NCBI GenBank assembly: GCA_964448755.1
Contig: CAYUXF010000004.1
Location: forward strand, 1-51,672
DNA: 51,672 nucleotides
Direction of reading: 5' to 3'
DNA from: an uncultured bacterium
GTDB lineage: Bacteria > Margulisbacteria > Termititenacia > Termititenacales > CAYUXF01
Within the stretch, counting starts at the first letter, position 1. Every line of letters begins with the position of its first letter. The notes under the pieces are model-generated. The model had not been told where the DNA came from. It ran no database searches and saw only the letters and a program-made list of their open reading frames with translations. The translations under genes and the position numbers were made by a program. This document shows, in pieces, positions 2,462-17,835 of this stretch.

Positions 2462-3678
2462 TGTTTATTCTCTGAAAATTTTTTAATGATAATAGATGTA
2501 TTAATGCCGCCAAACGCCAGGGCGTTAGACATGACAATGTTTAGCTCTTTTTTTCTTGCTTTGTTTGGTATGTAGTCAAGATCACATAATGGGTCAGTTG
2601 TTTCATAATTAATTGTTGGTGGCATCAAGTTGTCTCGCAATGCCAGGCAACAGGCCACTGCTTCAATGGCGCTGGCTGCTCCCATGCAATGACCTAGCAT
2701 TGATTTGATAGAACTGATAGGCGTTTTGCAAGCAGTAGTTTTAAAAACGTTTTTTATGGCTTTTGTTTCAATCTGGTCATTAGTTAATGTTCCGGTGCCA
2801 TGGGCGCTAATATAATCAATATCTTTTGGTTGTATCTTGGCCATTTTCAAGGCATCTTTCATGGCCTGGCTGAGCCCTAGTCCTTCCGGGTGAGGGGCTG
2901 TAAGATGATAGCTGTCGCAATTTAGACCATACCCAATTATTTCACCGTAAATCTTAGCTTTTCTTTGAAGGGCAGTTTCTAAAGTTTCTAATAAAAGAAT
3001 GCCACTCCCTTCTCCAATTAAGATGCCAGATCTGTTCTTATCAAAAGGCTGAACTTTTTCTTTGGCCATAGAGCGTAATTTTATAAAGCCGGCATAGGCG
3101 GTATAAGAAAAAGAGTCACTTCCGCCAGCTAGTGCATATTGAACAATTCCATTTTTTATTAGTTCTGCAGCTCTGATTATTGCGTAGTTGCCAGCAGAAC
3201 AAGCCATAGGGAAGGTAAATGTTGGTCCGTTTAAATTTAATTCTTTGTTGATACCAGCGGCTATCTTCCAGGCTGGATATATTTGATATAAAAGTTTTTT
3301 TCGTTTAGGGGCAAGAGTTTTGTTGAATTTTTCATAAAGAACGTTACCTTCACCGCCGGTAACACCAATACATACTGCGGTTTGCTTGTTGTTAAGTGAA
3401 ATATTATTTTGGCAGGCCATTTTGGCGGCGACAATGGCAAATTGCGCGGCCGGTCCATAGTTTTTTAATGAACTTTTTTTAATAAAAAGCTCTGGCTGAA
3501 AAGAGTTTATTTCTCCACCGTGGGTAAAACTAAAATCTTTAGTATCATATTTTGTAATTGGTGAAATTCCACTTTTTCCGGTTACTATATTTTTCCAGAA
3601 GATATCCGGTTCGTTACCTAGTGCAGAGACTATACCCAGTCCGGTAATTACTATTCTGGTAGGTTTTTTGTTTTCCAA
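2458..3678 (-). CDS. Beta-ketoacyl-ACP synthase, KAS II (FabF)-like, intact catalytic triad
   Basis: 406-aa ORF with active-site Cys in MACSAGN, His in SAHGTGT and His in MLGHCMGAAS. It lies 3 nt downstream of an ACP gene. Confidence 0.9.
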   Translation of the reverse strand: MENKKPTRIVITGLGIVSALGNEPDIFWKNIVTGKSGISPITKYDTKDFSFTHGGEINSFQPELFIKKSSLKNYGPAAQFAIVAAKMACQNNISLNNKQTAVCIGVTGGEGNVLYEKFNKTLAPKRKKLLYQIYPAWKIAAGINKELNLNGPTFTFPMACSAGNYAIIRAAELIKNGIVQYALAGGSDSFSYTAYAGFIKLRSMAKEKVQPFDKNRSGILIGEGSGILLLETLETALQRKAKIYGEIIGYGLNCDSYHLTAPHPEGLGLSQAMKDALKMAKIQPKDIDYISAHGTGTLTNDQIETKAIKNVFKTTACKTPISSIKSMLGHCMGAASAIEAVACCLALRDNLMPPTINYETTDPLCDLDYIPNKARKKELNIVMSNALAFGGINTSIIIKKFSENKQ

Positions 3679-3681
3679 TTT

Positions 3682-3924
3682 TTATAGTTTTTTTGTTAAA
3701 TAGGCTTCAACTAAGGCAATGAATTGACCGACAGATTTTAGGTCATAGAGGTCGTTATTATCTATTTTAATGTTATATTTAGATTCTATATCAGAAACCA
3801 ATTCTAACATTTTTAAAGAATCAGCCTCAAGTTCTTTTAAAAAAAGAGTTTGAGGCGTTATTTTTTCAATAGGTTTTTTAAATGAAGTGGCAATAATTGA
3901 AAATATACCTTGTTGAATACTCAC
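3682..3924 (-). CDS. Acyl carrier protein
   Basis: 80-aa ORF with phosphopantetheine attachment motif LEADSLKMLELV (DSL). GTG start preceded by AGGAG about 8 nt upstream. Confidence 0.85.
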   Translation of the reverse strand: MSIQQGIFSIIATSFKKPIEKITPQTLFLKELEADSLKMLELVSDIESKYNIKIDNNDLYDLKSVGQFIALVEAYLTKKL

Positions 3925-3983
3925 GAATAACTCCTAAATTTTATACAAAAAAATATTCTATAGTATATAATATAATTTACAAC
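3925..3983. promoter_or_regulatory. 59-bp divergent intergenic region between the ACP operon (-) and the GNAT operon (+)
   Basis: This is the only non-coding gap between the two divergent operons. It contains TATAAT (3970-3975) only 8 nt upstream of the ATG at 3984, so that mRNA would have a very short leader or none. No clear -35 element was identified. Confidence 0.35.
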
Positions 3984-4562
3984 ATGTCATATTTACATAC
4001 TAATTTTGCAAAAATAGGCACAAAAAATTTATTTTTAATGGATTCTTTGCCTGCTGATCTGGAAAAAGTTAAGAATTTTTTTAAAAATAATAAAGATGTT
4101 CTTAATTACTCTAGTTGGCAGGATATTTACCAACAAGACGAAGGGCTCTCTTTTTTTGAAAAATCATTAAGGACACAGTTTGAATATCCGCGAAAAAGTT
4201 TTATTTTAGGCGTTGTTTCTAATAATAATCCTGCTGAAATGATAGGTGTTTGTAGTATATGTATTGATGAAGAAAAAAAAGAGGGTATTATTAGACTAGC
4301 TCTTGCCAGGAATATTCAGGGGCTCTTTTATTCTTTAGAAGTAATAGAGGCTCTTTTGGAATTTGGGTTTCAGGTTTTAAACTTTCATAAAATTATTTCC
4401 TTAGTAGATGTAGATAATGATATTTTAAAAAAAATATATTTGCGAGCAGGCCTTAAAGAAGATGGGAAATTACTGCAATATTTGTTTTATGGTAATTCTT
4501 GGCACGATCAATATTTGTTTTCTATTTTGCACAAAGATTGGCTGGAGCTGAAAAAAAGATGA
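3984..4562 (+). CDS. GNAT-family N-acyltransferase (RimJ/RimL-like)
   Basis: C-terminal GNAT core: ...FGFQVLNFHKIISLVDVDNDILKKIYLRAGLKEDGKLLQYLFYGNSWHDQYLFSIL. The ORF track starts at 3897 but that overlaps the ACP gene; the internal ATG at 3984 (MSYLHTNF) is preferred. The start is uncertain. Confidence 0.65.
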   Translation: MSYLHTNFAKIGTKNLFLMDSLPADLEKVKNFFKNNKDVLNYSSWQDIYQQDEGLSFFEKSLRTQFEYPRKSFILGVVSNNNPAEMIGVCSICIDEEKKEGIIRLALARNIQGLFYSLEVIEALLEFGFQVLNFHKIISLVDVDNDILKKIYLRAGLKEDGKLLQYLFYGNSWHDQYLFSILHKDWLELKKR

Positions 4563-5134
4563 ACAAAACAATAATGAAATTATCTGAATATTCTGTGAAA
4601 GAAATAGACTTTGATGATTTTGCTGCCTGCGCAATTTTTATAAGAAATAATCCTGATTTATTATCTTTTGATGGCTGGGGAAAGATAAAAAATATAGAAG
4701 AATTCAATTATTGTTTTCACAAATATCTGGTTGAAAAGCATGAAAACAAGAGTATTTATTCTATTTATCAAATAATTGATAATGATTCTGAAATAATAGG
4801 TTTTTGTGGATTTAAGTTAATTGATAAAACTTTCCTGATGACGGCAATTGGTCAAGGTGAGGCGGCTCTGTTATTTTGTTTTTCTGCAGAAATAGAAAAG
4901 ATCATTAAAAAAGAAATTCTATCTGAATTTATACGCTATGGGTTTAAAAAGTTAAATTTAAAACGTCAAAGATTTTTGGTTAGCGTTGATAGTGAAGAAG
5001 GGATCTCTTTTATTGCTGAATTGAATTTTATTAAAGAGGCGTTGCTTAGAGAACATTATTTTGCGGATAATGGTTGGCATGATTGTTTTTTGTATGCTGC
5101 GGTTAATTCTGTTTATCCAGGAGTAGCTAATTAA
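4559..5134 (+). CDS. GNAT-family N-acyltransferase (RimJ/RimL-like), tandem paralog
   Basis: ATGA overlap with the previous gene (ATG 4559, TGA 4560-4562). GNAT core: YGFKKLNLKRQRFLVSVDSEEGISFIAELNFIKEALLREHYFADNGWHDCFLY. Confidence 0.65.
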   Translation: MNKTIMKLSEYSVKEIDFDDFAACAIFIRNNPDLLSFDGWGKIKNIEEFNYCFHKYLVEKHENKSIYSIYQIIDNDSEIIGFCGFKLIDKTFLMTAIGQGEAALLFCFSAEIEKIIKKEILSEFIRYGFKKLNLKRQRFLVSVDSEEGISFIAELNFIKEALLREHYFADNGWHDCFLYAAVNSVYPGVAN

Positions 5135-5863
5135 ATGGTTTTTTTTGCCAGAGACAGGCTATTTAAAAACAATAAAAATTATCCCAAAGTTTTTAAGTTT
5201 AATGCGCTGGTTTCCCAAGTGTTTGATAACATGCTCAAGCGCAGTGTCCCTTTTTACTATAATATTCAAAAAGAGATCTGTTATTTTGCTAAAAAATTCA
5301 TCAAACCAAATACCAATGTTTATGATCTTGGCTGTTCAACCGGCTATACTGTCCGTAAAATTGCTAAAAACTTTAAAAAACAAAATATAACTTTATGGGC
5401 CGTTGATTATTCAAGCGAATTGCTCACTAGAGCGAAAGATCGTTTAAGAAAATACAAAAACATTAACTATATTAATTGTGATCTTAATAAAGATTTTAAA
5501 ATTTCTGGAGCCAGCTTTGTTGTTGCCAACTTAGTTTTACAGTTTTTAAAATATTCTTCCAGACAGAAACTTTTGAAAAATATTTATTCAGGTCTTCAGC
5601 CCGGCGGTTGTTTTATAATGGTTGAAAAATTGAGAAACGATAATTTTTTTCTGGAGAATATTTTTGTGGATCGTTACTATTTTTTTAAACAAAAAAACCG
5701 GTATTCAAGAGAGGAGATTGTTCGCAAAGAACGAGCGCTGAAAAGTATTTTATCTCCACTGACAATGCAAAAAAATATAGAGCTTTTGCAAAAAGCAGGC
5801 TTTTCTAATATAGAAGTATTTTTTAGGTGGTTTAATTTTTGTGGATTTATAGCGGTAAAATAA
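5135..5863 (+). CDS. cmoA: Carboxy-S-adenosyl-L-methionine (Cx-SAM) synthase, CmoA family
   Basis: 242 aa, collinear over its full length with E. coli CmoA as I recall it. Matching blocks: VFDNMLKRSVPFYYNIQ / VFPDMIQRSVPGYSNII; VYDLGCSTG / VYDLGCSLG; NLVLQFL..RQKLLKNIYSGLQPGG / NFTLQFL..RQALLDKIYQGLNPGG; YSREEIVRKERAL / YSELEISQKRSML; FFRWFNFCGFIAVK / WFQCFNFGSLVALK. Confidence 0.85.
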   Translation: MVFFARDRLFKNNKNYPKVFKFNALVSQVFDNMLKRSVPFYYNIQKEICYFAKKFIKPNTNVYDLGCSTGYTVRKIAKNFKKQNITLWAVDYSSELLTRAKDRLRKYKNINYINCDLNKDFKISGASFVVANLVLQFLKYSSRQKLLKNIYSGLQPGGCFIMVEKLRNDNFFLENIFVDRYYFFKQKNRYSREEIVRKERALKSILSPLTMQKNIELLQKAGFSNIEVFFRWFNFCGFIAVK

Positions 5864-5867
5864 AGAT

Positions 5868-6866
5868 ATGTATAGTGAAATATTTTCAAAAATAGCTACT
5901 CCGCAACTAAACGATAATGTTGTTGAGCGTCAAAAAAACAGATTATTTTCTTCAAATATACCTAAAATGATTGAACTCTTTAATCTTAGTGCAGCGCCTG
6001 TTATTTTAGATATTGGCGCAGGGACCGGTCAGTATAGCTATGCTTTTGCTGAGTATTTACAAGATAATGCCACTATTTATGCGGTGGAGGTTTTTAAGGA
6101 TAGGTATGATTACATAAAAGATCAAGTGGCTCTTAGAAATTATAAAAGTATTTTGCCAATGTTACTTTCTAGAAGTAATGATGATGAATTTTATTTTAAT
6201 AACAGTTATGACCTGATATTTTTGGGTAACAGTTTTGAATATATTAATAATAAGCAAAATTTTCTATCAAAATTAAGAGATAAGTTAAAAGAGCATGGTA
6301 AACTGGCAATAATTATGCATCGTGATATTAGCCCTTTTACAGAAGAGGATATTTTGGATAACGCTGGGTTGTTAAAGGCCTTATTAGATGAGAAACTGGA
6401 TAGTATATTTTATTTATCGGAAAAGAAAGAACCGCTGGCAAGCCTGAATTATTTCTTTAATGATTTAGACTGGACTGCCAAATATTTTCGCTATTGCCAG
6501 CAATTAAAATGGCTTCCTGTAAGCCAACTAGATGATCTGCAAAAAAGAACTTTAATGGGAATTATCAGTTTTTTAAAACGTGAAGAGAATATTTTTGATG
6601 ATAATTTTGAGATAAAAGACCCTGCCTTGATTACACCAAAAATAAATTTGATGTTTAAAATAGTTAATAAGTTAGTTTTTAGTGATCATTATAAACAATA
6701 TTTACGTGGAGATATTTTCAAGGAGAATTTTTTCTCTGATTTTAACAGAATGCAAAGCAGTGCTTTCTTGCAAGAGATAAAAGAAGTCATGGCTGCGGCC
6801 GGATATGGTTTTGCTGGTGTTTATGATTTTATTCCTTGGTATTATTTAGTAATTTTTAACAAGTAA
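5868..6866 (+). CDS. Class I SAM-dependent methyltransferase with a C-terminal extension of about 170 aa
   Basis: Motif I VILDIGAGTGQYS at residues about 45-57, plus LIFLGNSFEYI and GKLAIIM blocks. The domain layout differs from CmoB, whose GxGxG motif sits near residue 130, so it is not an obvious CmoB ortholog. Confidence 0.7.
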   Translation: MYSEIFSKIATPQLNDNVVERQKNRLFSSNIPKMIELFNLSAAPVILDIGAGTGQYSYAFAEYLQDNATIYAVEVFKDRYDYIKDQVALRNYKSILPMLLSRSNDDEFYFNNSYDLIFLGNSFEYINNKQNFLSKLRDKLKEHGKLAIIMHRDISPFTEEDILDNAGLLKALLDEKLDSIFYLSEKKEPLASLNYFFNDLDWTAKYFRYCQQLKWLPVSQLDDLQKRTLMGIISFLKREENIFDDNFEIKDPALITPKINLMFKIVNKLVFSDHYKQYLRGDIFKENFFSDFNRMQSSAFLQEIKEVMAAAGYGFAGVYDFIPWYYLVIFNK

Positions 6867-6888
6867 CATGTTAAGATAGTAGTTATAT

Positions 6889-7917
6889 ATGATTGAAACT
6901 GAAAATAATATCACTAATATATCTGATCCGGTAATCAAAAGTAATTGGTGCAATAAATTTGAAATTCCTTTAACAATGCTACAAACTGATTCTATTTTTG
7001 ATATTATTCAATCTGTAAAATACGGGGAATATATTCAAAGTGTTTATTTGCCTCTTTATGGGTTTGACGGTTTTTCTGGTAGACCTTTTTTTAAGAAAAC
7101 TAATGACAATCAAGTTGTAACTGTACCAGGCTATCAAAAGACAAAAGAAGAGTGGATCAGATTGATTAAAAACGTCGCTCAATACAAGCCTGTAACACTT
7201 ACAGTTCCTTTTTCAAAAAATATAAATTTAATTAAAGAATATATTGATTATGGCGTAAGTGAGATCATGATCAATCAATATTGGCCGGAACTTGATCAGG
7301 TTAAAGACAAGATCAAAATATCAAGATCTATTCTTGCTTATCATGATTCAGATGAGCCCATTGATGATCGTTTTGATGCAGTGATTATTCCCTATCGTAA
7401 AACTATGGACATAGAATGGTTAGAAAAGAATAGCAAGAAATTTGAGCTTATTGCGATCATAAATAATTATTGTGTAATAGAGTGCCCTTTGCAGAGTTAT
7501 AAAGAGAAGCTAATGCATAATTTTTATCGTGGTATTTTCCCTGTAAATAATGAGATCATGCCGTTTACTAAAAATTGTCTTAGATATGGCAAAACGACAT
7601 CTGCTATGTTGCCTAGAGATATTATTATCAAACTGAGTAAGTATATTTCTCGTTATAAATTAGTTGAAAGAGCATCTTCTCCCGCTGCTTATATTAGCTC
7701 TTTGAATTATTATATTTATAATGAACCTTTTTGTTTTGATTCTTTTAATTCTTCTGATTGGGTAAGAGAAGGTTTTAGTGCCGAGAAGATGGCTAGGATA
7801 ATGAAAGATAAAGAAGATCATTTTAGAGGATCAAACCTGGAAACACTTAATTGTAAATTTCAATGTTCTAGCTGTGATAGAAAGTGCTATAGTATTAATG
7901 ACTGGAATGATGAATAA
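6889..7917 (+). CDS. Cys-rich hypothetical protein, tentatively a U32-like barrel with a C-terminal Fe-S type Cys cluster
   Basis: 342-aa ORF. The pattern FEIPL...SVYLPLYGFDGFSGRP...KPVTLTV...GVSEIMI loosely follows the beta/alpha pattern of the U32 protein at 15809 and of the C-terminus of the 1556-aa protein. C-terminal NCKFQCSSCDRKC has spacing C-x3-C-x2-C-x3-C. There is also CVIEC. Confidence 0.35.
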   Translation: MIETENNITNISDPVIKSNWCNKFEIPLTMLQTDSIFDIIQSVKYGEYIQSVYLPLYGFDGFSGRPFFKKTNDNQVVTVPGYQKTKEEWIRLIKNVAQYKPVTLTVPFSKNINLIKEYIDYGVSEIMINQYWPELDQVKDKIKISRSILAYHDSDEPIDDRFDAVIIPYRKTMDIEWLEKNSKKFELIAIINNYCVIECPLQSYKEKLMHNFYRGIFPVNNEIMPFTKNCLRYGKTTSAMLPRDIIIKLSKYISRYKLVERASSPAAYISSLNYYIYNEPFCFDSFNSSDWVREGFSAEKMARIMKDKEDHFRGSNLETLNCKFQCSSCDRKCYSINDWNDE

Positions 7918-7966
7918 TAGATTTTTTAAAGACATTAATATATAATTCAAAACGAGAGGAATAATA

Positions 7967-8542
7967 ATGACTTACCAAAATTACATGGATTACACTAATA
8001 AATCACCTGATTATTCAGATCATACTAACTGGAATGGTTCTGCCTGGGTAGCTAATTATCGTGATCATCAGAATTATACTATAGATGATGGTGTTGCCCC
8101 TGTCACCAATGATCGTCAATATGTTTATAATATTAATACCCCAGCTAATGCTTTTACACAGGAATCTTATATTAAAGATCAGATTAATAATCTTAAAACC
8201 TTAAGGGACGATACAATAGAGTTAGCCACCCGCAAAGTTACATCTACTGGTGGAACAAATACTCCGGATTCGGTAAATAGTTATAATAAGGACACCGATT
8301 TTGAAGAGGCAGATTATGCTATCCAGCAGCAGGTAGAAGAGACCATTGCCAATGTCAAGGCTCTTTGGCAGTCTATGAAGGGAAACAACGATAATAACTG
8401 GTCTGGCTGGCCGGCAGATGAGCAAGACGGGCAAAGAAGAAAAGCCAGTGACTATAATATTTTGCGTGATAAGTTGCAAGATTTGGCACAGACAAATAAG
8501 CCGACAGGTTATGCTGACCATAAAAATATTGGTACGCCATAA
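7967..8542 (+). CDS. Hypothetical 191-aa protein with N-terminal aromatic-X-(Asn/Asp) tripeptide arrays; candidate rSAM substrate
   Basis: Strong SD (GAGAGGA) 6-7 nt before the ATG. No signal peptide or TM segment. Residues 3-39 read YQN YMD YTN kspd YSD HTN WNG sa WvaN YRD HQN YTI. Y-x-D-H-x-N occurs three times (residues 16-21, 31-36, 182-187). Confidence 0.6.
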   Translation: MTYQNYMDYTNKSPDYSDHTNWNGSAWVANYRDHQNYTIDDGVAPVTNDRQYVYNINTPANAFTQESYIKDQINNLKTLRDDTIELATRKVTSTGGTNTPDSVNSYNKDTDFEEADYAIQQQVEETIANVKALWQSMKGNNDNNWSGWPADEQDGQRRKASDYNILRDKLQDLAQTNKPTGYADHKNIGTP

Positions 8543-8550
8543 CTAATTAG

Positions 8551-8814
8551 ATGGCTATTATAAAAAAGTCTATCTCAAAAAAAAATTTACCAAAAAATGT
8601 TACATGCTCTTGCTGCGGTAAAACGCTTAACGAGATCGTTGTTTTAACTGAGGTTTTGTTGGATGTCTATAGCTGGTATGTTAATGATTCTAAAAAACAG
8701 TTGGAAAACATTAATGGCCTCTGGAAAAAGAATGGTGAGTATTTTTGTGAGCTCTGTTTTGCAAAATATGTAAAAACCATAGAAAAATTCTATAAAGATT
8801 GTCGCAAGGCTTAA
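8551..8814 (+). CDS. Small Cys4 zinc-ribbon protein (87 aa)
   Basis: CSCCG (residues 19-23) and CELC (residues 66-69) form a split zinc-ribbon pattern, and there are six Cys in total. It is tightly packed between the 191-aa ORF (8-nt gap) and the rSAM gene (6-nt gap). Confidence 0.55.
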   Translation: MAIIKKSISKKNLPKNVTCSCCGKTLNEIVVLTEVLLDVYSWYVNDSKKQLENINGLWKKNGEYFCELCFAKYVKTIEKFYKDCRKA

Positions 8815-8820
8815 TTTTTT

Positions 8821-10143
8821 ATGTTTGAAAATATTTATGAGGTTATTTTAAAAGTAACTCGCGATTGTAATTTAAATTGTCAGTATTGTTATTTAGGCGA
8901 CAAAAAACAGTATGCCGGCGAACGGATGAGTTTTACTGTTTTCAAAAAACTGATTGATCAAATTTATTTAGACAAACATATTCGTAATAAAAAAGAGAGA
9001 TTTAATGGTCAGCTACAGATAGTTTTTCACGGCGGCGAACCTACTTTGCTGGGGATATCTAGGCTGGAAAAATTTATTAAGTATGCCAAAGCCAAACTTC
9101 CCTATGTCCGGTTTGGTATGCAGACAAATATGTTAGTAATAGATCAGCAATGGGTAAACTTTTTTAAAAAATATAATATTTCACCGGGTATTAGTGTAGA
9201 TGGTAATTTAAAAAAGGAAAATGCTTTGCGTTTACCGGGATTTGATTTTACAGAAAAATTAAATTTGCTTAAAAAAAACAAGATCAGGTTCGGGACACTG
9301 ATGGTCTTAAGTAGTCAAAATATCAAAAATTTTTCTAAAAATTTAATGACATTTATTAAAAAATATAAGATCTCCTCAATTAAAGCCAATTTTGTCGAAA
9401 ATATGGCCAAACCAGAATTTTGTTATCCAGAAGTGACTGCCGACCAAATGTATCAACATGTTTTTTTGCCGACGATGGCCTTGTTTTTTGATCAAAATAA
9501 ATTATATGAATCAAATATTGAACATCTTATTGATAAATATATTAATAGTTTACTGTATAAAGAGTCTGCGGCTAAAACTTGTTCACATACTATTTGTCAT
9601 GCCAAATTTTGCGGCGGGGGTAATGCGATTGTTGAGGTTGAACCAACTGGTGAAATTCTTTTTTGTGGCCGCTGGAATAAAATTAATAAAGTTAATTTAA
9701 TGAATGATCTAACTTCTTTTTTTGATCCCTTTGGTATATCTTCTTATAAACGCGTTTTTGATCTGCAATTGCAAAAAGCGACAGCTGTAAGAGAATTAGG
9801 CTGTGATAGTTGTCCCGCTGCCGGTATTTGCAATTATGGCTGTTTGGCTTTTGCTTATGTTAAATATCAGGGGCAGATCAAAATTCGTTCAGAACTTATC
9901 TGTGATTACTATAAAAAAGTCATTAAATATTTTCAGGCACGTTATCATCAAATAATTTATATTTATAGCATGATCACTAAAAAAGAGATAATAGTGGCTA
10001 GAGGAAAAGTATTAATTGATTTCCCTATGGCTATGATTAATGGTGTTAGTAAGAAAAAGTTACCAGCCGGTTTGGCTTGGCAAAAAGTTAATAATAAAAA
10101 TTATTTAACAATTTCCAATAAATATTTAAAAGATTTTTTATAG
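8821..10143 (+). CDS. Radical SAM enzyme with canonical SPASM domain (peptide/protein maturase type)
   Basis: CNLNCQYC (CX3CX2C) at residues 16-23; GGEPTLLG. The C-terminal SPASM signature is visible directly: C-GGGNAIVEVEPT-G-EILF-C, then C-DS-C-PAAGI-C-NYG-C, then a downstream Cys (ELICDYY). Confidence 0.9.
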   Translation: MFENIYEVILKVTRDCNLNCQYCYLGDKKQYAGERMSFTVFKKLIDQIYLDKHIRNKKERFNGQLQIVFHGGEPTLLGISRLEKFIKYAKAKLPYVRFGMQTNMLVIDQQWVNFFKKYNISPGISVDGNLKKENALRLPGFDFTEKLNLLKKNKIRFGTLMVLSSQNIKNFSKNLMTFIKKYKISSIKANFVENMAKPEFCYPEVTADQMYQHVFLPTMALFFDQNKLYESNIEHLIDKYINSLLYKESAAKTCSHTICHAKFCGGGNAIVEVEPTGEILFCGRWNKINKVNLMNDLTSFFDPFGISSYKRVFDLQLQKATAVRELGCDSCPAAGICNYGCLAFAYVKYQGQIKIRSELICDYYKKVIKYFQARYHQIIYIYSMITKKEIIVARGKVLIDFPMAMINGVSKKKLPAGLAWQKVNNKNYLTISNKYLKDFL

Positions 10144-13100
10144 GGTTTTCTGTTGGCTGAATTTTGGCTGATAGACGATTCTCGATATTTTTAGTTTTTC
10201 CAAACAGGTACTATCTGGCAAACTGGTGTTTGTATAAAACTGGGTGTTGCCATTGATCAAGAGTGGCTCGTCATAGTTTCTTAAGTTGGCTGTAATATAT
10301 TTTTGCTGACAGTGTTGATAACAAAGATCTTTTTCTTTAAATAAACATTTTTTAGTTGTCGTTATATAGACATAAGGCAAGTAGAGACTATTACTTAAGT
10401 CTTCTGGCAATACAGCATCATATCCTTGCCAGACATTATCAAATTCTATGCCATTAATTTTATTGCTTAATAAATATTTCTGAAATATTTTTTCTGTTAA
10501 ATTAGCTGTGCGCAAATATTTTAATAATTCATTGTTATTTGTTTGGCGTGGTTCTCGTTTAACTTTTAATAAAAGGCGCCCCAGGCGCGGCGTTAACTGA
10601 TGCTTTTTTATTGAGGATAATAATCCCCAGTCATTAAAGACAATTTCACAATTTAAGGGCAGTAAAGGCAATAACTCAATTATTTTTTTTAATCCTTTTT
10701 CAGTTAGCGGCGGCGTTAATAAAATAAATCTTTTTTTATTTTTAAGACAATAATTTAAAAATGCTGCGGTTTTTTCTTTAGTGGGAATTAATTCTTCACA
10801 AAATTCTGAACCTAAGTAGATGTGAGTGTAGTTTAAGTGTTCCAGATCGGTTATTTTTTTTATGTTGTCAATGGCCAGCGCTAATTCTAACCGATGTTCT
10901 TTTAGATATTCTGGCAATTGGGCTAATAATTCTTTTTCTGTTTTTTCCCAGTTGTTAGATTTCTCTATTTGCTCAACAGCTGTTTTTATTGGTTCTTTAT
11001 TTTTTAGATAAGTGACCAGTTTTGGTATTTGTTGGTTGTAGTCATACTGTTTGGCTTTTTGCCTATTTATTTTTTGCATGGCCTGACGTGTTTTGTTATC
11101 AGATAATAAAATTAGTGCTGATAATAATTGTTGCGTGTCAGGAATATTGTTGTTGATATCTATTGTAAAGCCATTCTCGCCATCTATGACCAGTTCATTT
11201 ACTGCCTGCCAATTAGTGGTGATTATGGCGCAACCTGCGGCCATCCCCTCCACAATTGCCCGGCCAAAAGTTTCTCCTGTATCTGTGGAAAGAAAAACCA
11301 GCACATTAGATTCATTGAGGATTTGATTTCGCTTAATTTTTTCTTGTGTAAGATCTCCATGAAAAACAATATTTTCTTTCAGGTTAAATCGCTCAATAGT
11401 TTGGTGTAATAACGCTAAGTATTGTTTTTCTTCTTTATTTAAATTTTCCAGCGGACAGATAATATTCAATTTAAAAGATATTGCATTTTTACTGGCGCCT
11501 AGTAGACTGAGAAGAACGTGCAGATTTTTTACAGGGGTTAACCGTCCGCAATAAACCAGGCTCAGTTCATTGCTTTGGTCATAATTTTTCGGAAATTCTC
11601 TATAGTTTATTGGTCCGGCCATTTTTAGGAGATCAAAGTTTAGCGAAATTTGCTGAAAACTGCTGTGGAGATATTTGCTGAATGTCAAAAATGTATCAAT
11701 GTTTTTTGCTTCTCTGGCTAAGCGAAAATATCTTGCGCGCCACGGCTCAAAAATATAGGGCCAGACAATAAAGCCAATGGGCAATTTATTATCGTTGCGG
11801 TAAGTAAATAACGGATAAGCATCAATTGTAATATTGAGAAAGATAAAACTGATCTGGTTGGTTGTTAAAAAATTAAAAAAATCTATCAGTGATCTTTGTA
11901 AATGTTCTTCTTTGATCAAGATAACCTCAAAATAATTGCTAAGATATTTTAAGTTATCTTGATCGGTAACTTGATGACTAATATTGGCATATTGCTCTAT
12001 TTTTATTGCCGCTAGTTTGATCTTATTGTTGTTTTTTTCTTCAATTATTAGCTGTTCTTTAAGTTCAAAGTTAGCTACGGGTTTGTTTAAACATATTTCT
12101 GGCGGTAGCTCCAAAAAGAGCGGATGCTCTTGCCAGATAGTTTTTAAAACATAATAATTTTTTTCTAGATTTTTTATAGCAAGCGGTTTGTTTTTTTTGT
12201 AGAGCAGACAATCATTAGCTAGTAATATTTTATAGCCGTTATGCCGTGCTCTAAAACAGAAGTCAAAATAGGTATAAAGATCACTTTCTATAAAATTCTT
12301 GTTGAGCCCGCCAGCTTTTTGCAATAATGTCTTTTTTATTAGTAAACAGCTATCCCAAAGCCAATTTTTTTCTGTATAAGTTTCTGGTAGTTCTTCTGTC
12401 TGGCCTTTTTTCTTGTTTTTTATGTCAGTAAAATTATCGGTATAATTAGGCCCAACAATACCTATCTCTTTACAGAAAATAAACCCATTTTTTAATTTAT
12501 TTAACCAGTTATCGCTAATAATAATATTATCAGAAATTAAACAAACGTAGCGGCTTTGGCGATTATTTAACCCATCATTAATAAACGCTATTTCGCTGGT
12601 TGTTTGTGGGGCGATGATAATTTTTATATTTTTATATTTTTTTTGTAGTTGGTCATAATAGCTTTTTTTAGCTGAAGTAATGTTTTTATTTAAAATAATC
12701 AAATTAAAAGGGTGGCGCGTTCTTAAATAAAGAGCTGCCAGCGCTCGTTTAGTTAAAGAAAAATCATTGGATGTTAATAATATTATATCGATTGTTTCAC
12801 AGAAGATAGAATATTTTTCTAATAATTCACAGAACTGATATTTTTTTGTAAAACTAAGCTTGCTCTTGGCTACTCTTTCTTCAATATCAGGTGCGGTGAT
12901 CTGTTCTTCTAATGTAATATTGGCATAAAGAAAAAATTCTTGCCAGGAAAAGCTATTATTGCCAAATATTTCTGCTATTTCAGAGGTTTTAATTTTTTTT
13001 ACAGGTAGTAAGTTCAGATCGCTAATTGAAGGGACTGTGAAAGAGTGAATAGTGTAAATATTGTAATATTTTAGATGAAAATAAAAAGTTATCCCTTTAT

Positions 13101-14808
13101 CATCATGATTAATAGTGGAGAAGCTTAAGAATTGTAAGTTTTTTAATTTTCTGTTTTTTAGCATTAATTCAATCGAATAAAAAAGTGAATTTAAGCCGAG
13201 TTGTCCGGTCATTTTTTTTGTAAGCCCCTCATCATGTTGTCTTTTAAAATATAAAACCTTGGGGATAATATAAATTGGGGCCAGGGTTTCTAACCTAATA
13301 AATATATCGGCGTCTTCGCAGGCATTTAAAACTTCCGGGTTCCAGTGCCAACCGCCGATCTTTTTGAGATGTTTGGCATTGATCAAATAAGGTTGATAAA
13401 TATTGTAGATATCGATAGTAAATCCTTGATATTTTTGCCGTTGTTCAGGGATGATTTCCAGTGACATTATCTCTGATGTTATTCTGAGTCCGGCACGGAT
13501 GAGAGAAAAATCTTTATGTTTCGAAATTTCTTTTTTTAATTCTGCCAGTAGGGTAGGTGCTACATGGTCATCTGAATCAAGCGGAATTATATAGGGGCTG
13601 TTGGAGTTACTAAAGAGTATCTGTCGTGTAGGGCCTACACCTAAATTTCTGGTATTTTGAAAAAATTTTATTTTTTTATGTTTTTTATATTTTTCAACCA
13701 ATTCAGCTGCTTTTTTTTGGTCTGGTGGATTATCAAAACAAATGAGTAATTCCCAGTTTTTGTTAGTTTGCTGTATTACGGAAGTTACTGTTTCTTCAAT
13801 ATGTCGCAAGTCATAGGCCGGGCATTGAAAAGAGAAAAGAGGCCCTTTCTTCGCTCTATTGTTGATTGTTTTTTTTATGGGATTGATCTGAGTGTTTTTT
13901 AATATTTGAACACAAATTTCTGGCAGATCAAAGTCATAAAAATTATTATTATTAAAATTTATTAAATACTTTCCTGTTTTTAGATCTGAAGGTATTTTTG
14001 GATTTTTTATAGGGAGATCTTTATCTGTGATTGTTGTTTGATAATTATTCAAAATACTGATCTCTAATTTTTTGGAGTTATAAATTATTAAGTTAAAGTT
14101 TTTGTAGATTTGTTCATCAAGATAATTTTTAATTTTTAAAATATCTTTTTCCTGGGTTATTTTGAAAAAAAGAGATAGCAGTGGTTGCTCTAATTGCCAA
14201 AACTGCCCGGTAAAGGATTTTTTATTTATGGGGAATTTTAGATATTTTGGTAGGTAACTAAAGAGAGGTGTATTTTGCCAGCGGTAATAAAAAGCAGTGT
14301 AGTTTTCTTTAATCAATTTAGCAGCTTTTTCTGCGCCAAACGTGCCGCAATTGGCATGATGAATTTTACTATTGTGAGCGACTAATATTTTATAGCCGGC
14401 TTCAATTACTTTAAAACAGAGGTCAATATCCTCAAAATAACCTGGTCCAAAAATATTATCAAATAAGATATTTTCTTTGATCAATTGGCGATCGATCATA
14501 AAACAAGTGCCATAGACATAAGGGGCTTCAGTGTAAGTTGTTTTGCTGGAGATGGGGTTTTGGTAGGGATTATTGCAATTTATTAAAGGGGCTACAATGC
14601 CAACATTATTTGCCTTTTCAAACCCTTTAGCTAAGTTTTCCAGCCAGCCTTTATTAACTGTAGTATCATTGTTAAGTATTACCAGATATTTTGCTGTGCA
14701 ATGGGGAAGAGCCAGATTAATACTTTTTATAAACCCTAGGTTTTCATTGTTTTTAATTATTTTAATTTTCTTATGTTTTTTTAGTGAGTTATAATAATCT
14801 ATTGCCAA
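10138..14808 (-). CDS. Multidomain glycosyltransferase fusion: GT2 + GT2 + GT2 + GT4(GT-B) + C-terminal U32-like module
   Basis: 1556-aa ORF. GT2 no.1 is about 14340-14808 (ILNNDT, YFEDIDLCFKVIEAGYKI). GT2 no.2 is about 13230-13850 (PLDSDD). GT2 no.3 is about 12190-12800 (LISDNII, FDFCFRARHNGYKI). GT4 is about 11000-12000 (ETFGRAIVEGMAAGCAII, an EX7E motif). The U32-like tail is about 10138-10900 (HIYLGSEFCEE...ILLTPP...EIVFNDWGLL). The true start is probably upstream of 14808 (see findings). Confidence 0.8.
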   Translation of the reverse strand: MAIDYYNSLKKHKKIKIIKNNENLGFIKSINLALPHCTAKYLVILNNDTTVNKGWLENLAKGFEKANNVGIVAPLINCNNPYQNPISSKTTYTEAPYVYGTCFMIDRQLIKENILFDNIFGPGYFEDIDLCFKVIEAGYKILVAHNSKIHHANCGTFGAEKAAKLIKENYTAFYYRWQNTPLFSYLPKYLKFPINKKSFTGQFWQLEQPLLSLFFKITQEKDILKIKNYLDEQIYKNFNLIIYNSKKLEISILNNYQTTITDKDLPIKNPKIPSDLKTGKYLINFNNNNFYDFDLPEICVQILKNTQINPIKKTINNRAKKGPLFSFQCPAYDLRHIEETVTSVIQQTNKNWELLICFDNPPDQKKAAELVEKYKKHKKIKFFQNTRNLGVGPTRQILFSNSNSPYIIPLDSDDHVAPTLLAELKKEISKHKDFSLIRAGLRITSEIMSLEIIPEQRQKYQGFTIDIYNIYQPYLINAKHLKKIGGWHWNPEVLNACEDADIFIRLETLAPIYIIPKVLYFKRQHDEGLTKKMTGQLGLNSLFYSIELMLKNRKLKNLQFLSFSTINHDDKGITFYFHLKYYNIYTIHSFTVPSISDLNLLPVKKIKTSEIAEIFGNNSFSWQEFFLYANITLEEQITAPDIEERVAKSKLSFTKKYQFCELLEKYSIFCETIDIILLTSNDFSLTKRALAALYLRTRHPFNLIILNKNITSAKKSYYDQLQKKYKNIKIIIAPQTTSEIAFINDGLNNRQSRYVCLISDNIIISDNWLNKLKNGFIFCKEIGIVGPNYTDNFTDIKNKKKGQTEELPETYTEKNWLWDSCLLIKKTLLQKAGGLNKNFIESDLYTYFDFCFRARHNGYKILLANDCLLYKKNKPLAIKNLEKNYYVLKTIWQEHPLFLELPPEICLNKPVANFELKEQLIIEEKNNNKIKLAAIKIEQYANISHQVTDQDNLKYLSNYFEVILIKEEHLQRSLIDFFNFLTTNQISFIFLNITIDAYPLFTYRNDNKLPIGFIVWPYIFEPWRARYFRLAREAKNIDTFLTFSKYLHSSFQQISLNFDLLKMAGPINYREFPKNYDQSNELSLVYCGRLTPVKNLHVLLSLLGASKNAISFKLNIICPLENLNKEEKQYLALLHQTIERFNLKENIVFHGDLTQEKIKRNQILNESNVLVFLSTDTGETFGRAIVEGMAAGCAIITTNWQAVNELVIDGENGFTIDINNNIPDTQQLLSALILLSDNKTRQAMQKINRQKAKQYDYNQQIPKLVTYLKNKEPIKTAVEQIEKSNNWEKTEKELLAQLPEYLKEHRLELALAIDNIKKITDLEHLNYTHIYLGSEFCEELIPTKEKTAAFLNYCLKNKKRFILLTPPLTEKGLKKIIELLPLLPLNCEIVFNDWGLLSSIKKHQLTPRLGRLLLKVKREPRQTNNNELLKYLRTANLTEKIFQKYLLSNKINGIEFDNVWQGYDAVLPEDLSNSLYLPYVYITTTKKCLFKEKDLCYQHCQQKYITANLRNYDEPLLINGNTQFYTNTSLPDSTCLEKLKISRIVYQPKFSQQKTL

Positions 14809-15702: not shown

Positions 15703-15808
15703 AAATTTCCTTTTCTATAGTTTTATTCATAATATTATACTGTAAATAGTAGATCAATAAAACTTAATAAAATTGATTTTTTGCTATTCATTAAGTATGC
15801 TCTTGAGA

Positions 15809-16711
15809 ATGAAAATAGAGGTCCCAGTTAGAGGTTATAGAGAGGCTGTAGAGTTGCTGGCGGCTGGTGCCGATATTCTCTATGGTGCTCTGGCCCCACA
15901 ATTCTATAGCAATGCCGCTGGTGCTGTTAGCCGTAGAGCCTGGCAAGAGTGTAATATTTTTTCTTTACAAGATCTAAAGGCAATTTGTCAGTTAGTTAAA
16001 GAAAAAAATAAAAAGTTTTATTTGGCCTTAAATGAACATTTTTATAATGAAGAACAATTGCAGGGGATTAGCGCGTTTTTAAAAATTAATAAATTTATTA
16101 AAAATATTATTATTGCAGATCTAGGCTTGGTCCTTTTTTTAAGAAAAAACTTTCCTAAACTAAATATTATTGCCAGTGTTGGGACACATGTGTTTAATTC
16201 TGCGGCGGTTAGTTTTTATGAAAATTTAGGAGTTAAAGAAATAGTTTTGCCAAGAGAGATAACGGCTGAAGAGGTAGTTTTATTAAAAAACAGTGCAGCG
16301 CAAATTAGTTTTTCGTATATTATAAAAAACGATGATTGTCCTAATATTGATGGTCTTTGTGCGTATTCTCATGGCATTTATGATGGTAGTGGTCCATGTA
16401 CAGATCTTTATAATATTGTTTGTAAAGATAGAATTTCCGAAGACGTCGTTGAAATAAATGATTATAATTTTAGATCACGTCAAAATTGCAAGGTTTGTCA
16501 ATTAAAGAGTTTTGCGCAAGCGGGGTTGGATATTGTTAAAATTGCTGGCAGAGGTAGTTCTTTAAAGAAGCTAGTTCAAGATATTGATTTTTTGAAACAG
16601 GCGATTGGTTTTTTGAAATATCCAGAGCAGCAATTTTTGTTTAGTCTAAAAAATGCATATAGAAAAAGTTATAATTGTGAATGTTTGGTGAATTGTCAGG
16701 ATGGTTCTTAA
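15809..16711 (+). CDS. Peptidase-U32-family protein (family of the O2-independent hydroxylases UbiU/UbiV, TrhP, RlhA)
   Basis: MKIEVPVRGYREAVELLAAGADILYG..., KKFYLALN, IIIADLGL, IVLPREIT. The U32 Cys signature C-x4-G-x-C-x-x-S is present as CPNIDGLCAYS, with further Cys in CTDLYNIVC. The ORF track begins at TTG 15773; ATG 15809 matches the usual family N-terminus. The start is uncertain. Confidence 0.8.
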   Translation: MKIEVPVRGYREAVELLAAGADILYGALAPQFYSNAAGAVSRRAWQECNIFSLQDLKAICQLVKEKNKKFYLALNEHFYNEEQLQGISAFLKINKFIKNIIIADLGLVLFLRKNFPKLNIIASVGTHVFNSAAVSFYENLGVKEIVLPREITAEEVVLLKNSAAQISFSYIIKNDDCPNIDGLCAYSHGIYDGSGPCTDLYNIVCKDRISEDVVEINDYNFRSRQNCKVCQLKSFAQAGLDIVKIAGRGSSLKKLVQDIDFLKQAIGFLKYPEQQFLFSLKNAYRKSYNCECLVNCQDGS

Positions 16712-16737
16712 TAAAAATAAACTAGAAAAGAGGATCA

Positions 16738-17760
16738 ATGCAGGTTTTAGATATAATGCAGTTAGAGTTTAATAAATTGAAACAACAGGACTTGCCTTTC
16801 CATGTGTTGGTTAAATTTAGCGGAGGTAAAGATAGTTCATATTTATTATATTTAATGAAAGAAAAATATGGGTTAACTCCGTTAGCTTTTTCAGTGATCC
16901 ATCCTTTTGTGGGGAAACAAGCCCTTTCCAACATGAAAAGAGTTTGTCGAAAATTAAAGGTCAAGTGGCAGCCGTGTTTTGTTGATAAAAAAGAGTTCTA
17001 TCAATATATGAGTTATGGCCTCAAGAATTATCAAAAATATAATACAAAATATCACCAGGCTGATCTTTATGGTTGTAGGCTCTGTTGTTCGGTTTATAAT
17101 ACGCTAGCTTATAGAAAAGCACTGGAATTAAATATTCCTTGTGTGATCGATGGTAGTGATTTTAATCAGCTGGGTTTTCCCTTATTTATACAAGGTTGTT
17201 CAGTCAAGGAAGAGCTGAATAAGGATGAAACTTTCTTTGGTTCTTATGAGCGGATCCTTCAGGATCTTCAACAGCAAAAATCGCTTAAGCCTATATATTT
17301 ATCGGTTTATGCCAAAATGCCGGATAAGACTTTCCCGGATTATGTTGCTCCGCTTTCAATAATTGAATATGACCCTGAAAAAGCTAAGTTGTTGCTGGAA
17401 GCAAAAGGGATAATTAAGTCTAATAAATTGTTTGTTGAAAAAACCAACTGTACGGTTCGCCATCTTTTTGCCCACCTAGGGTTTAAGTATTTTAATTGCC
17501 ATCCCTATCAGGAACACGTTTTGCGGATGGCTGACTCTGGTCGCCATGGTTTTACTCGTGATAAGGTGAGCGCCTATTTTGTAGAATTAAAAAATTTATT
17601 AAATTATCTAGCTAAAAATCCAGGCTTAAAAAATAAAGAGCTAAAGCAGCTGTATGCTAATTATCCTGTGCTGGCTTTGCGCCATAACTGTTCTTTGCCC
17701 TGGCTGAAAGATTTACAGCAGCTGCATAGATATGCGGAATATTTAGATGTTAAACTTTGA
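16738..17760 (+). CDS. PP-loop ATP pyrophosphatase (adenine-nucleotide alpha-hydrolase), resembling N-acetyl-sugar amidotransferases
   Basis: PP-loop SGGKDS in VLVKFSGGKDSSYLLYLMKEKYGLTPLAF. CRLCC motif and IDGSDFNQLG block. The overall pattern resembles the WbpG/PseA-type amidotransferase family, but TtcA/QueC-like roles cannot be excluded. Confidence 0.65.
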   Translation: MQVLDIMQLEFNKLKQQDLPFHVLVKFSGGKDSSYLLYLMKEKYGLTPLAFSVIHPFVGKQALSNMKRVCRKLKVKWQPCFVDKKEFYQYMSYGLKNYQKYNTKYHQADLYGCRLCCSVYNTLAYRKALELNIPCVIDGSDFNQLGFPLFIQGCSVKEELNKDETFFGSYERILQDLQQQKSLKPIYLSVYAKMPDKTFPDYVAPLSIIEYDPEKAKLLLEAKGIIKSNKLFVEKTNCTVRHLFAHLGFKYFNCHPYQEHVLRMADSGRHGFTRDKVSAYFVELKNLLNYLAKNPGLKNKELKQLYANYPVLALRHNCSLPWLKDLQQLHRYAEYLDVKL

Positions 17761-17835
17761 TTTTTTTAGGCTTTGGTTGTTAGAAAACTTATTTAATAAA
17801 ATTAAGATTTTCTTTTTGTTAAGTTAAATATCTGT

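Follow-up and report, generated by a model that had tools for sequence, protein, structure and literature searches.

What does a radical S-adenosylmethionine (rSAM) enzyme with a SPASM domain act on when it shares a cassette with a protein whose two ends are built of Tyr/His-x-Asn/Asp units? The question is raised by three adjoining genes at 7967-10143 of contig CAYUXF010000004.1 (GenBank assembly GCA_964448755.1), which derives from an uncultured bacterium of the Margulisbacteria. The DNA analysed, referred to here as the window, is the whole stretch of 51,672 nt, positions 1 to 51,672 of the forward strand of this contig. An earlier reading made from the letters alone (the sequence-only reading) had proposed that the tripeptide arrays in the 191-amino acid (aa) product of the first gene are sites of cross-linking by the enzyme. 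As judged by the sequence comparisons reported below, the 191-aa protein is very probably the substrate of the adjoining rSAM. For the whole explanation, in which the three genes form a maturation cassette with cyclophane-type cross-linking, the case for and the case against are considered to be in balance.

The repeat protein and its family

The three open reading frames (ORFs) of the cassette (Table 1) are as first described, with gaps of 8 and 6 nt between them, and the strong Shine-Dalgarno sequence attributed to the first is present as GAGAGG, with the ATG 7 nt further on. Residues 3-39 of the 191-aa protein read YQN-YMD-YTN-kspd-YSD-HTN-WNG-sa-WvaN-YRD-HQN-YTI in the translation, where Tyr, His or Trp together with Asn or Asp account for 20 of the 35 residues from 3 to 37. 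The hexapeptide Y-x-D-H-x-N occurs three times, as YSDHTN (residues 16-21), YRDHQN (31-36) and YADHKN (182-187), the last copy ending four residues before the C-terminus. No N-terminal hydrophobic stretch was found in the translation, in agreement with the claim that an export signal is absent. As Tandem Repeats Finder detected no tandem DNA repeat in this stretch, the periodicity of the array is therefore maintained at the protein level. Other DNA-level explanations for the cassette stretch, namely an Rfam family, a terminator or an excess of promoter-like sites, were likewise not found.

The protein includes nine aromatic-x-[ND] tripeptides. When its own residues were permuted 2000 times, Y-x-[ND]-H-x-[ND] was expected 0.012 times against 3 observed, and in-phase double tripeptides of the aromatic-x-[ND] type 0.15 times against 5 observed; neither observed count was reached in any shuffle (0/2000 in each case). 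In-phase double units were enriched over shuffles in all 26 family members examined. The claim that Y-x-D-H-x-N itself is the conserved unit held only in part, since the first copy, YSDHTN, is replaced by YNNVYD in a 73% identical homologue (P0003), but the broader form Y-x-[ND]-[HY]-x-[ND] holds family-wide. Across the family, 118 double units have Tyr at position 1 in 102 cases, Asn (94) or Asp (24) at position 3, His (65) or Tyr (48) at position 4, and Asn (92) or Asp (26) at position 6, with the x positions unconstrained. No other short motif of the family is as well conserved as these units.

No Pfam or NCBIfam model matched the 191-aa protein, and a word-indexed search with it returned two close relatives only. 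A HMMER search of 1.84 billion representative proteins recovered ~20 true family members of 147-301 aa, and the named genomes that encode them all belong to Candidatus Margulisiibacteriota, with two copies in Ca. Termititenax aidoneus. In the family alignment, the N-terminus is invariant as M-x-Y-S-N-[YH]-x-[ND], where x is a small residue, and in almost every member residue 3 opens the first unit. Next comes a stretch of variable length with much Tyr, His and Asn, and in some cases Cys, that consists of Y-x-[ND]-[HY]-x-[ND] units and includes a conserved last pre-domain unit, Y-x-N-H-x-N-x-S-I..P..Y. The core of ~110 aa (W..L..AI.DIK.LR.EI..L...KV ... QINETI.N...LW..IKG ... DYK.I..KAQ.LA) then precedes an invariant G-Y-x-N-H-x-N unit, after which further units are sometimes present; the number of units per protein varies from 2 to more than 10. 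An exception within the C-terminal unit is position 4, where His is exchanged for Cys in some lineages (GYLNCAN or GYLNCCN). Hence, both features that had been singled out as unusual for a peptide that is made by ribosomes and modified after translation (RiPP), a product of protein size and the occurrence of units from residue 3 and again after a folded domain, are real and family-wide.

In comparison with a 79%-identical homologue, the repeat gene has a dN/dS of 0.063, indicative of strong purifying selection. Its first 48 codons include 14 synonymous-only differences versus 5 replacements, and are therefore at least as constrained as the remaining protein. An AlphaFold2 model of moderate quality, made from the family alignment, leaves residues 1-48 (predicted local distance difference test, pLDDT, <50) and 181-191 disordered and forms the core from three helices with pLDDT 70-83. 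This helical core is proposed to be a docking or functional domain. No match of the protein in the PDB, by sequence or by Foldseek fold, was accepted, the best E-values being 0.38 and 3.6.

Several smaller observations concern the same protein. In the AlphaFold2 model, residues 35-38 (8069-8080) pair with 185-188 (8519-8530) in a short two-stranded sheet with pLDDT <50, a low-confidence arrangement that would bring the N- and C-terminal units together. Most family members have x-[ST]-I after the last pre-domain unit, which creates an N-x-S/T sequon (HQNYT, residues 34-38, at 8066-8080 in the window), and from this motif N-glycosylation of the Asn in that unit is possible. Sequons were rejected as the real meaning of the units, as elsewhere x is Ser or Thr in only ~1/3 of them. 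Matches of the family profile to polyubiquitin over residues ~122-168 (8330-8470; ETIxNVKA..Q...G.P.DQ....SDYNI), with E-values down to 1e-7, were judged to be due to chance because their significance arises only when 6-8 weak repeats are summed over a single 45-residue stretch. A phage origin of the cassette was also rejected, since two scans of IMG/VR yielded no relative of the repeat protein and the window is chromosomal, the cassette being located beside rpoBC and a ribosomal-protein operon. Word searches of the literature for the repeat family, for rSAM systems of Margulisbacteria or for YxN/YxD repeats found nothing relevant.

Linkage of the repeat protein to a Cys4 protein and an rSAM enzyme

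The cassette family was defined by a repeat protein that begins with M-x-Y-x-N-[YH]-x-[ND], contains a helical core and carries a Y-x-[ND]-H-x-N unit at its C-terminal end, and by a gene for a small protein with four cysteines (Cys4) directly upstream of an rSAM gene whose product scores at least 350 bits against the rSAM alignment profile (A4). The window falls within it, with 183.7 bits for the repeat-protein (YxN) profile and 610.8 bits for the rSAM profile. The gene order repeat protein, Cys4 protein, rSAM (hereafter rSAM-B) was found in 12 distinct loci with differing flanking genes (the window, L001-3, L004-9, L010, L012, L013/16, L014, L015, L018, L019, L098 and L099; loci are designated by L numbers), across which identity falls to 25-45% for the repeat protein and to 34-47% for the rSAM. 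This locus search used a sub-alignment of the family, the full alignment being too divergent, and genomic context covers approximately half of the family representatives, many contigs being short. A further locus, L022, also includes a repeat protein and an rSAM, separated by 260 nt, and is outside the 12-locus count. The genes upstream of the cassette in L004-6 form a sulfate-assimilation and TauE set unlike that of the window, and the trio therefore travels as a unit. The check on homologues put forward with the sequence-only reading gave a consistent result: the units and the neighbouring rSAM are retained down to ~25% identity, and no homologue with known context is without the rSAM.

The 87-aa Cys4 protein has C19, C22, C66 and C69 invariant across 14 homologues, as had been expected of a Cys4 zinc ribbon, and produced only sub-threshold zinc-ribbon matches in Pfam and the PDB (for example, DUF4428 and DZR_2). 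Its gene lies immediately upstream of the rSAM-B gene at every locus with enough sequence, except L097. From its conservation, the Cys4 protein is an obligate partner in the cassette, a feature that could not be seen in the earlier reading.

With one rSAM, the cassette of the window is a minimal system relative to those of other lineages. Depending on the locus, additional rSAM genes include an rSAM-A gene upstream, a second rSAM-B paralogue, a gene for a 330-aa rSAM-C and an rSAM-D gene, and eight or more rSAM genes follow one another in L099 (1467-11311). In some Margulisbacteria (L099, and L013 at 2501-10597), the pair encoding the repeat protein and the Cys4 protein is embedded among five to eight or more consecutive rSAM genes. 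The most divergent subclade, represented by L100 and probably also by the truncated L021 and L025, has the order rSAM-A, Cys4, rSAM-B; in L100, a diverged 308-aa protein rich in Tyr, Asn and Cys, of the same plan as the repeat protein, is encoded directly downstream of the rSAM. The second rSAM-B paralogue in L013, L014, L098 and L099 occurs together with repeat proteins that include 3-10 Cys, whereas L018 (three Cys) is without the paralogue. Over ~10 loci, a repeat protein with at least three Cys thus tends to go with a second B-type paralogue, though the correlation is weak.

The rSAM-B enzyme

The 440-aa enzyme of the window matches PF04055. The full SPASM signature reported for it (C259, C264...G277-x4-C282, C328-x2-C331-x5-C337-x3-C341 and C361), together with C16-x3-C20-x2-C23, was found to be conserved in 31 homologues. 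As the radical SAM motif begins at residue 16, there is no N-terminal RiPP recognition element (RRE) domain. The eight SPASM cysteines would be enough for two auxiliary Fe-S clusters. The rSAM-B enzymes form a clade of their own, with 31 proteins at 205-1007 bits and the scores that follow below 100. In the AlphaFold2 model (pLDDT 85.7), residues 375-432 extend beyond the ~370-residue chains of the best fold matches, anaerobic sulfatase-maturating enzyme (anSME) and ChlB, and this modelled extension may bind the substrate or a partner.

All scores against curated NCBIfam models were below the cut-offs, being 113.1 bits for TIGR03942 (anSME; cut-off 349.45) and 53.9 for PRK13758 (441), and among the full-length matches 101 for PapB (NF047865; 340) and 97 for DynA (450). 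Membership of anSME had been named in advance as telling against the proposal; with 113 bits against 349 for TIGR03942, the enzyme lies outside that family. In profiling with hidden Markov models (HMMs), no cut-off of the XyeB/GrrM/FxsB type was passed either. No PqqE model was among the 25 best NCBIfam matches listed, and neither a PqqB, PqqC or PqqD family nor a sulfatase was found among the neighbours scanned (window 55-21848; the rest is the rpoBC/ribosomal-protein region by size and order). The C/S-x-P/A-x-R motif is absent from the 191-aa protein. PDB sequence profiles gave 92 bits for CteB, 85 for ChlB and 83 for anSME, and anSME and ChlB were equal in Foldseek, with target-normalised template modelling (TM) scores of 0.71-0.74. 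From these scores and the model, the enzyme is placed among the RRE-less SPASM enzymes that modify peptides or proteins.

A neighbouring clade with arrays fused to the enzyme

When metagenomes were scanned with the rSAM profile, a neighbouring clade of SPASM rSAMs was recovered at 180-234 bits. At least three Y-x-[ND] units are present in the last 80 residues of 7 of the 10 complete enzymes of this clade, and in one further enzyme (L032) the tail is of a mixed Y/H/F/W-x-[ND] type. In the same scan, C-terminal arrays were found in 0 of 13 enzymes of the window clade and in 2 of 48 other SPASM enzymes. The fused tails, which are Y-x-D(-Y/H-x-D) repeat arrays (in L031, for example, ...GYSDSDSGGGNSYSDYDDRGYKDKDNRGYIDYSDKGYRD...), occur in L024, L027, L028, L029, L031, L032, L034 and L036, on unrelated and partly high-GC metagenome contigs. 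At L023 (3552-4403), a clade member without a tail has as its upstream neighbour a TPM/Psb32-like protein that ends in YSDYSDK repeats. There is no NCBIfam model for the clade, the best match being PapB at 112-134 bits. In a six-frame scan of 101 loci (658 kb), ORFs dense in Y-x-[ND] were seen only beside or inside these two rSAM clades.

The fusion of Y-x-D arrays to the enzyme suggests that this rSAM lineage acts directly on Y-x-[ND] units, and is the strongest computational argument for it. The association of arrays with a SPASM rSAM, first noted in the window, is thus kept across homologues and extends to a neighbouring clade in which both are parts of one protein.

Proposed maturation and alternatives

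In the proposed scheme, the flexible ends of the 191-aa protein would display Tyr/His-x-Asn/Asp units on either side of the three-helix core after translation, and the SPASM rSAM, with the Cys4 protein, would modify them. The 5'-deoxyadenosyl radical would take a hydrogen from the β-carbon of position 3 (Asn or Asp), the carbon radical so formed would attack the ring of the residue two places upstream (Tyr or His), and the auxiliary clusters would re-oxidise the intermediate. Each unit would lose 2 Da and become a three-residue cyclophane similar to those of triceptides. A Y-x-N-H-x-N hexapeptide would then hold two adjacent rings, and a Cys at position 4 of the C-terminal unit, as in some lineages, would by the same logic form a thioether.

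Abstraction of hydrogen from the β-carbon of Asn/Asp is postulated because the nearest full-length characterised relatives, PapB and DynA, act in this way on Asp/Asn. Both enzymes start by abstracting hydrogen from the β- or γ-carbon of an acidic or amide side chain; PapB forms a thioether to Asp Cβ or Glu Cγ, and DynA connects Trp to Asn Cβ. The exchange of His for Cys in the C-terminal unit fits a nucleophile or ring that captures a Cβ radical. Triceptides are defined by aromatic-x-x tripeptides cross-linked from the ring to Cβ, with His and Tyr among the aromatic residues and several tripeptides in a row (PMC11499958, PMC12912966). By analogy, cyclophane chemistry specifically is put forward as the likeliest single reaction, a tentative assignment that falls a little short of an even call.

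Given that the family has no leader, protease or exporter and does have a conserved helical core, a modified protein is a likelier outcome than an excised small peptide. The product would therefore probably be a modified protein with rigid cross-linked arms and a structural, metal-binding or redox role. It is conceivable, though rather doubtful, that the system represents a new class of rSAM-modified ribosomal protein product, which would be leaderless, guided by the three-helix domain and a Cys4 adaptor, and fitted with chains of rings at both termini, the enzymes of the neighbouring clade modifying themselves. Such a product would be a cross-linked material, a metal site or a redox site made by anaerobes without oxygen.

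A number of findings weigh against cross-linking of this kind. The models of known cyclophane synthases all scored below their cut-offs (AmcB 94 of 425 bits, YhhB 87 of 445, GrrM 69 of 310, FxsB 67 of 370 and XyeB 67 of 450), and those of XyeB, FxsB, GrrM and AmcB align only over residues ~6-195 of the window rSAM, its N-terminal core. Neither sequence nor fold brings the rSAM closer to the triceptide synthase ChlB than to anSME and CteB. Characterised triceptides all have an N-terminal leader that is cut before the first ring (PMC12912966), whereas here the first unit is at residue 3. No conserved protease or transporter was present near the cassette in the neighbours scanned at the window and its relatives, and neither a repeat protein nor a Cys4 partner could be recognised for the rSAM-B homologue in L097. 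In a crude neighbour-joining tree, the clade of the window and the clade with fused arrays lie in one larger group and are not strictly sisters. Glycosyltransferases are encoded near the system in most lineages, and another modification may therefore be involved. With no curated cut-off passed and equal distances to several families, homology does not decide the reaction catalysed by the rSAM.

That last point gives some room to a different reaction between the same enzyme and the same substrate, such as a Tyr C-O ether to Cβ, a His C-N link to Cβ as in dynobactin, an anSME-like two-electron oxidation of Cβ, β-hydroxylation or epimerisation. The best full-length match among both curated models and structures is anSME, the third-best match, DynA, makes C-C as well as C-N links, and the presence of up to seven further rSAM genes in other lineages points to more than one reaction on the scaffold. 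An anSME-like reaction is disfavoured by the missing Cys/Ser-x-Pro/Ala-x-Arg motif and by the lack of a sulfatase among the neighbours scanned, and a cross-link between two residues, unlike modification of a single one, predicts that aromatic residues are strictly paired with Asn/Asp at i/i+2. Other chemistry is on these grounds regarded as unlikely, but to be kept in view. The cross-linking scheme, like these variants, presupposes that the repeat protein is the substrate. It would not be if it were a structural, glycosylated or metal-binding operon-mate and the rSAM acted on a sugar, lipid or small molecule of a glycosyltransferase-rich cluster. Large multi-domain glycosyltransferases do adjoin the cassette in the window, L001, L006, L010, L012, L013 and L098, most members have a sequon after the last pre-domain unit, tails rich in Tyr, His and Asn could bind metals, and the absence of a protease and an exporter would be in keeping with such a role. 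However, Y-x-D arrays fused to the rSAM in the neighbouring clade are hard to explain without direct interaction of enzyme and motif, the cassette is retained in L099 and on the short contigs L018 and L019, whose fetched flanks include no glycosyltransferase, and the closest characterised relatives of the rSAM all modify peptides or proteins, which together make this explanation improbable.

The units might also be multiple cores that are excised after cross-linking to yield a cofactor or metabolite derived from Tyr or His, as pyrroloquinoline quinone (PQQ) is from PqqA and mycofactocin from MftA, with the helical domain a mere handle. Near-identical units that vary in number from 2 to more than 10 per protein would suit a multi-core precursor, the multi-rSAM clusters resemble cofactor pathways, and crude NCBIfam matches of the rSAM include PQQ-like and QHNDH-type maturases. 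This is considered very improbable, as the cassette has no conserved association with a peptidase gene or with a PqqB/C-like or MftD/E-like one, the minimal system of the window has one enzyme only, and the x positions are not conserved, so that the released products would be heterogeneous.

Comparison with known systems

The cassette is best described as an rSAM/SPASM maturation system for a ribosomal product, which is unusual in its leaderless, protein-sized substrate, its units on two sides of a core, its Cys4 protein, the C-terminal β domain of the enzyme and its relatives with fused arrays. It works most like a triceptide system. Known triceptide motifs include YDR, HNR, HAA, HTK and YSK-HAS-FTK (PMC11499958, PMC12912966), and the enzymes of these systems are represented by ChlB/ChlA, HaaB, YhhB, HtkB and MicB. 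The substrate of the cassette similarly has aromatic-x-x tripeptides, several in a row, its proposed maturase is an RRE-less SPASM enzyme, and the model of the window rSAM superposes on ChlB, a synthase of multiple Tyr cyclophanes, with a TM score of 0.73 normalised to ChlB. It is set apart from triceptide systems on two counts of membership: the rSAM passes no cut-off of a recognised three-residue cyclophane-forming enzyme (3-CyFE) family, and the leader-core architecture with proteolytic release is lacking, the substrate being a leaderless protein of 150-300 aa with a folded core and with units also after that core. Position 3 in the cassette family is, in addition, almost always Asn or Asp, and the cassette has an obligatory Cys4 partner, no protease or exporter, and a cross-link that is so far predicted.

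The enzymes of the anSME (AtsB) family, for which structures 4k36-4k39 are in the PDB, are the best full-length curated and structural match and are likewise RRE-less. An anSME acts on a full-length protein, abstracting a side-chain Cβ hydrogen in a short linear motif. Unlike an anSME system, the cassette has no sulfatase or C/S-x-P/A-x-R motif, its rSAM scores one third of the family cut-off and includes an extra C-terminal β domain of 65 residues, and both a repeat substrate of its own and a Cys4 partner accompany the enzyme. PapB, of the ranthipeptides, and DynA, which in dynobactin joins Trp to an Asn two residues away, are the next best full-length matches, far below their cut-offs. Their substrates, unlike the repeat protein, are short leader-core peptides. 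As the substrate in the window includes no Cys, a thioether is impossible there, and the C-x3-D/E sequence of PapB substrates is absent.

For the outcome of a modified protein, the closest precedent is QhpD/QhpC of quinohemoprotein amine dehydrogenase. QhpD is a SPASM rSAM that introduces several intramolecular cross-links to side-chain carbons of Asp/Glu in QhpC, and this subunit, which uses Cys thioethers and a Trp-derived quinone, stays a protein. The resemblance does not extend to the genes, since the rSAM matches the QhpD model with 71 of 453 bits over the N-terminal core only and no dehydrogenase subunits are encoded at the cassette. In the uncharacterised His-Xaa-Ser system, known from TIGRFAM descriptions, the tripeptide-repeat protein HxsA is encoded with two or more SPASM rSAMs (HxsB/HxsC). 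The comparison with it rests on the HMM score, which is weak (46 bits against a cut-off of 370 for HxsB), and that system differs in its H-x-S repeat and enzyme families and is not known to have a Cys4 partner or a helical core. A PQQ-type pathway (PqqA/PqqE/PqqD) is unlike the cassette in that the rSAM is without an N-terminal RRE and no PqqB/C/D family is encoded in the neighbours scanned.

The chemistry of rSAM cross-linking is known mainly from short leader-core peptides. If the proposed maturation is correct, it would be extended to a scaffold of protein size that has no leader and is modified on either side of a folded domain, and a mode of recognition would be added in which a Cys4 partner and a C-terminal β domain take the place of an RRE or leader. 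Little is understood of the phylum Margulisbacteria, among whose members are ectosymbionts of termite-gut protists, and the proposal would provide a testable role for one of their conserved gene sets, which comprises a protein family and an enzyme clade that neither Pfam nor NCBIfam covers with a model. The relatives with fused arrays would offer a one-gene system for the chemistry, and the motif rule (Tyr at position 1, Asn/Asp at 3, His/Tyr at 4 and Asn/Asp at 6) could be used for genome mining.

Table 1. Features of the cassette in the window and the evidence for each.
Feature	Position	Strand	Evidence
Shine-Dalgarno GAGAGG	7954..7959	+	read from sequence
191-aa Tyr/His-x-Asn/Asp repeat protein ('YxN protein'), proposed substrate	7967..8542	+	ORF
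N-terminal array, residues 3-38: YQN-YMD(-YTN), YSD-HTN, YRD-HQN(-YT); predicted disordered	7973..8080	+	sequence, shuffles, family alignment, AlphaFold2
Conserved core, residues ~50-180; predicted helices 69-92, 120-138, 162-175	8114..8506	+	AlphaFold2, alignment
C-terminal unit YADHKN, residues 182-187; family consensus G-Y-x-N-H-x-N, Y182 invariant	8510..8527	+	alignment
87-aa Cys4 (C-x2-C ... C-x2-C) zinc-ribbon-like protein	8551..8814	+	invariant Cys, gene position
440-aa radical SAM/SPASM enzyme ('rSAM-B'), proposed maturase	8821..10143	+	PF04055
Radical SAM cluster motif C16-x3-C20-x2-C23	8866..8889	+	sequence, alignment
SPASM region, eight conserved Cys: C259, C264, C282, C328, C331, C337, C341, C361	9595..9903	+	invariant columns
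Family-specific C-terminal extension, residues 375-432: one helix and four β strands	9943..10116	+	AlphaFold2

Neighbouring genes

Upstream of the cassette, the segment 5135-7917 encodes a CmoA-like carboxy-SAM synthase just above the cut-off (TIGR00740, 197.3 against 193.3), a second class-I methyltransferase, and then a 342-aa ORF without a family that has a Cys-rich C-terminus (CKFQCSSCDRKC). This trio sits between genes for GNAT, acyl carrier protein, ketosynthase and amine-oxidase proteins and the cassette, an arrangement shared by L001 and not by L004-6.

On the other side, a gene on the minus strand (10138-14808) converges on that of the rSAM, the two overlapping by 6 nt at the rSAM stop codon. 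Its 1556-aa product combines three GT2 domains with a single GT1 domain and has a C-terminal region of ~270 aa without a family; L001, L006 and L010 have a conserved counterpart next to the cassette, at 37-64% identity. Further downstream, 15773-18747 encodes a peptidase U32 family protein (92 bits), a 340-aa ORF without a family and a second, small (303 aa) rSAM/SPASM protein, which shows a weak resemblance (28-33% over ~90 aa) to the rSAM-C of 330 aa found after rSAM-B in distant loci. A U32-like domain was considered for the ORF at 6889-7917 and for the C-terminus of the 1556-aa glycosyltransferase and was rejected, BLAST among the window proteins having revealed no similarity.

In Ca. Termititenax aidoneus (L013, BGZN01000008.1), the segment 232-2489, just upstream of the multi-rSAM cluster, encodes two repeat proteins of ~215 aa with weak matches to BppL_N (phage lower baseplate), together with a helix-turn-helix/Bro-N protein.

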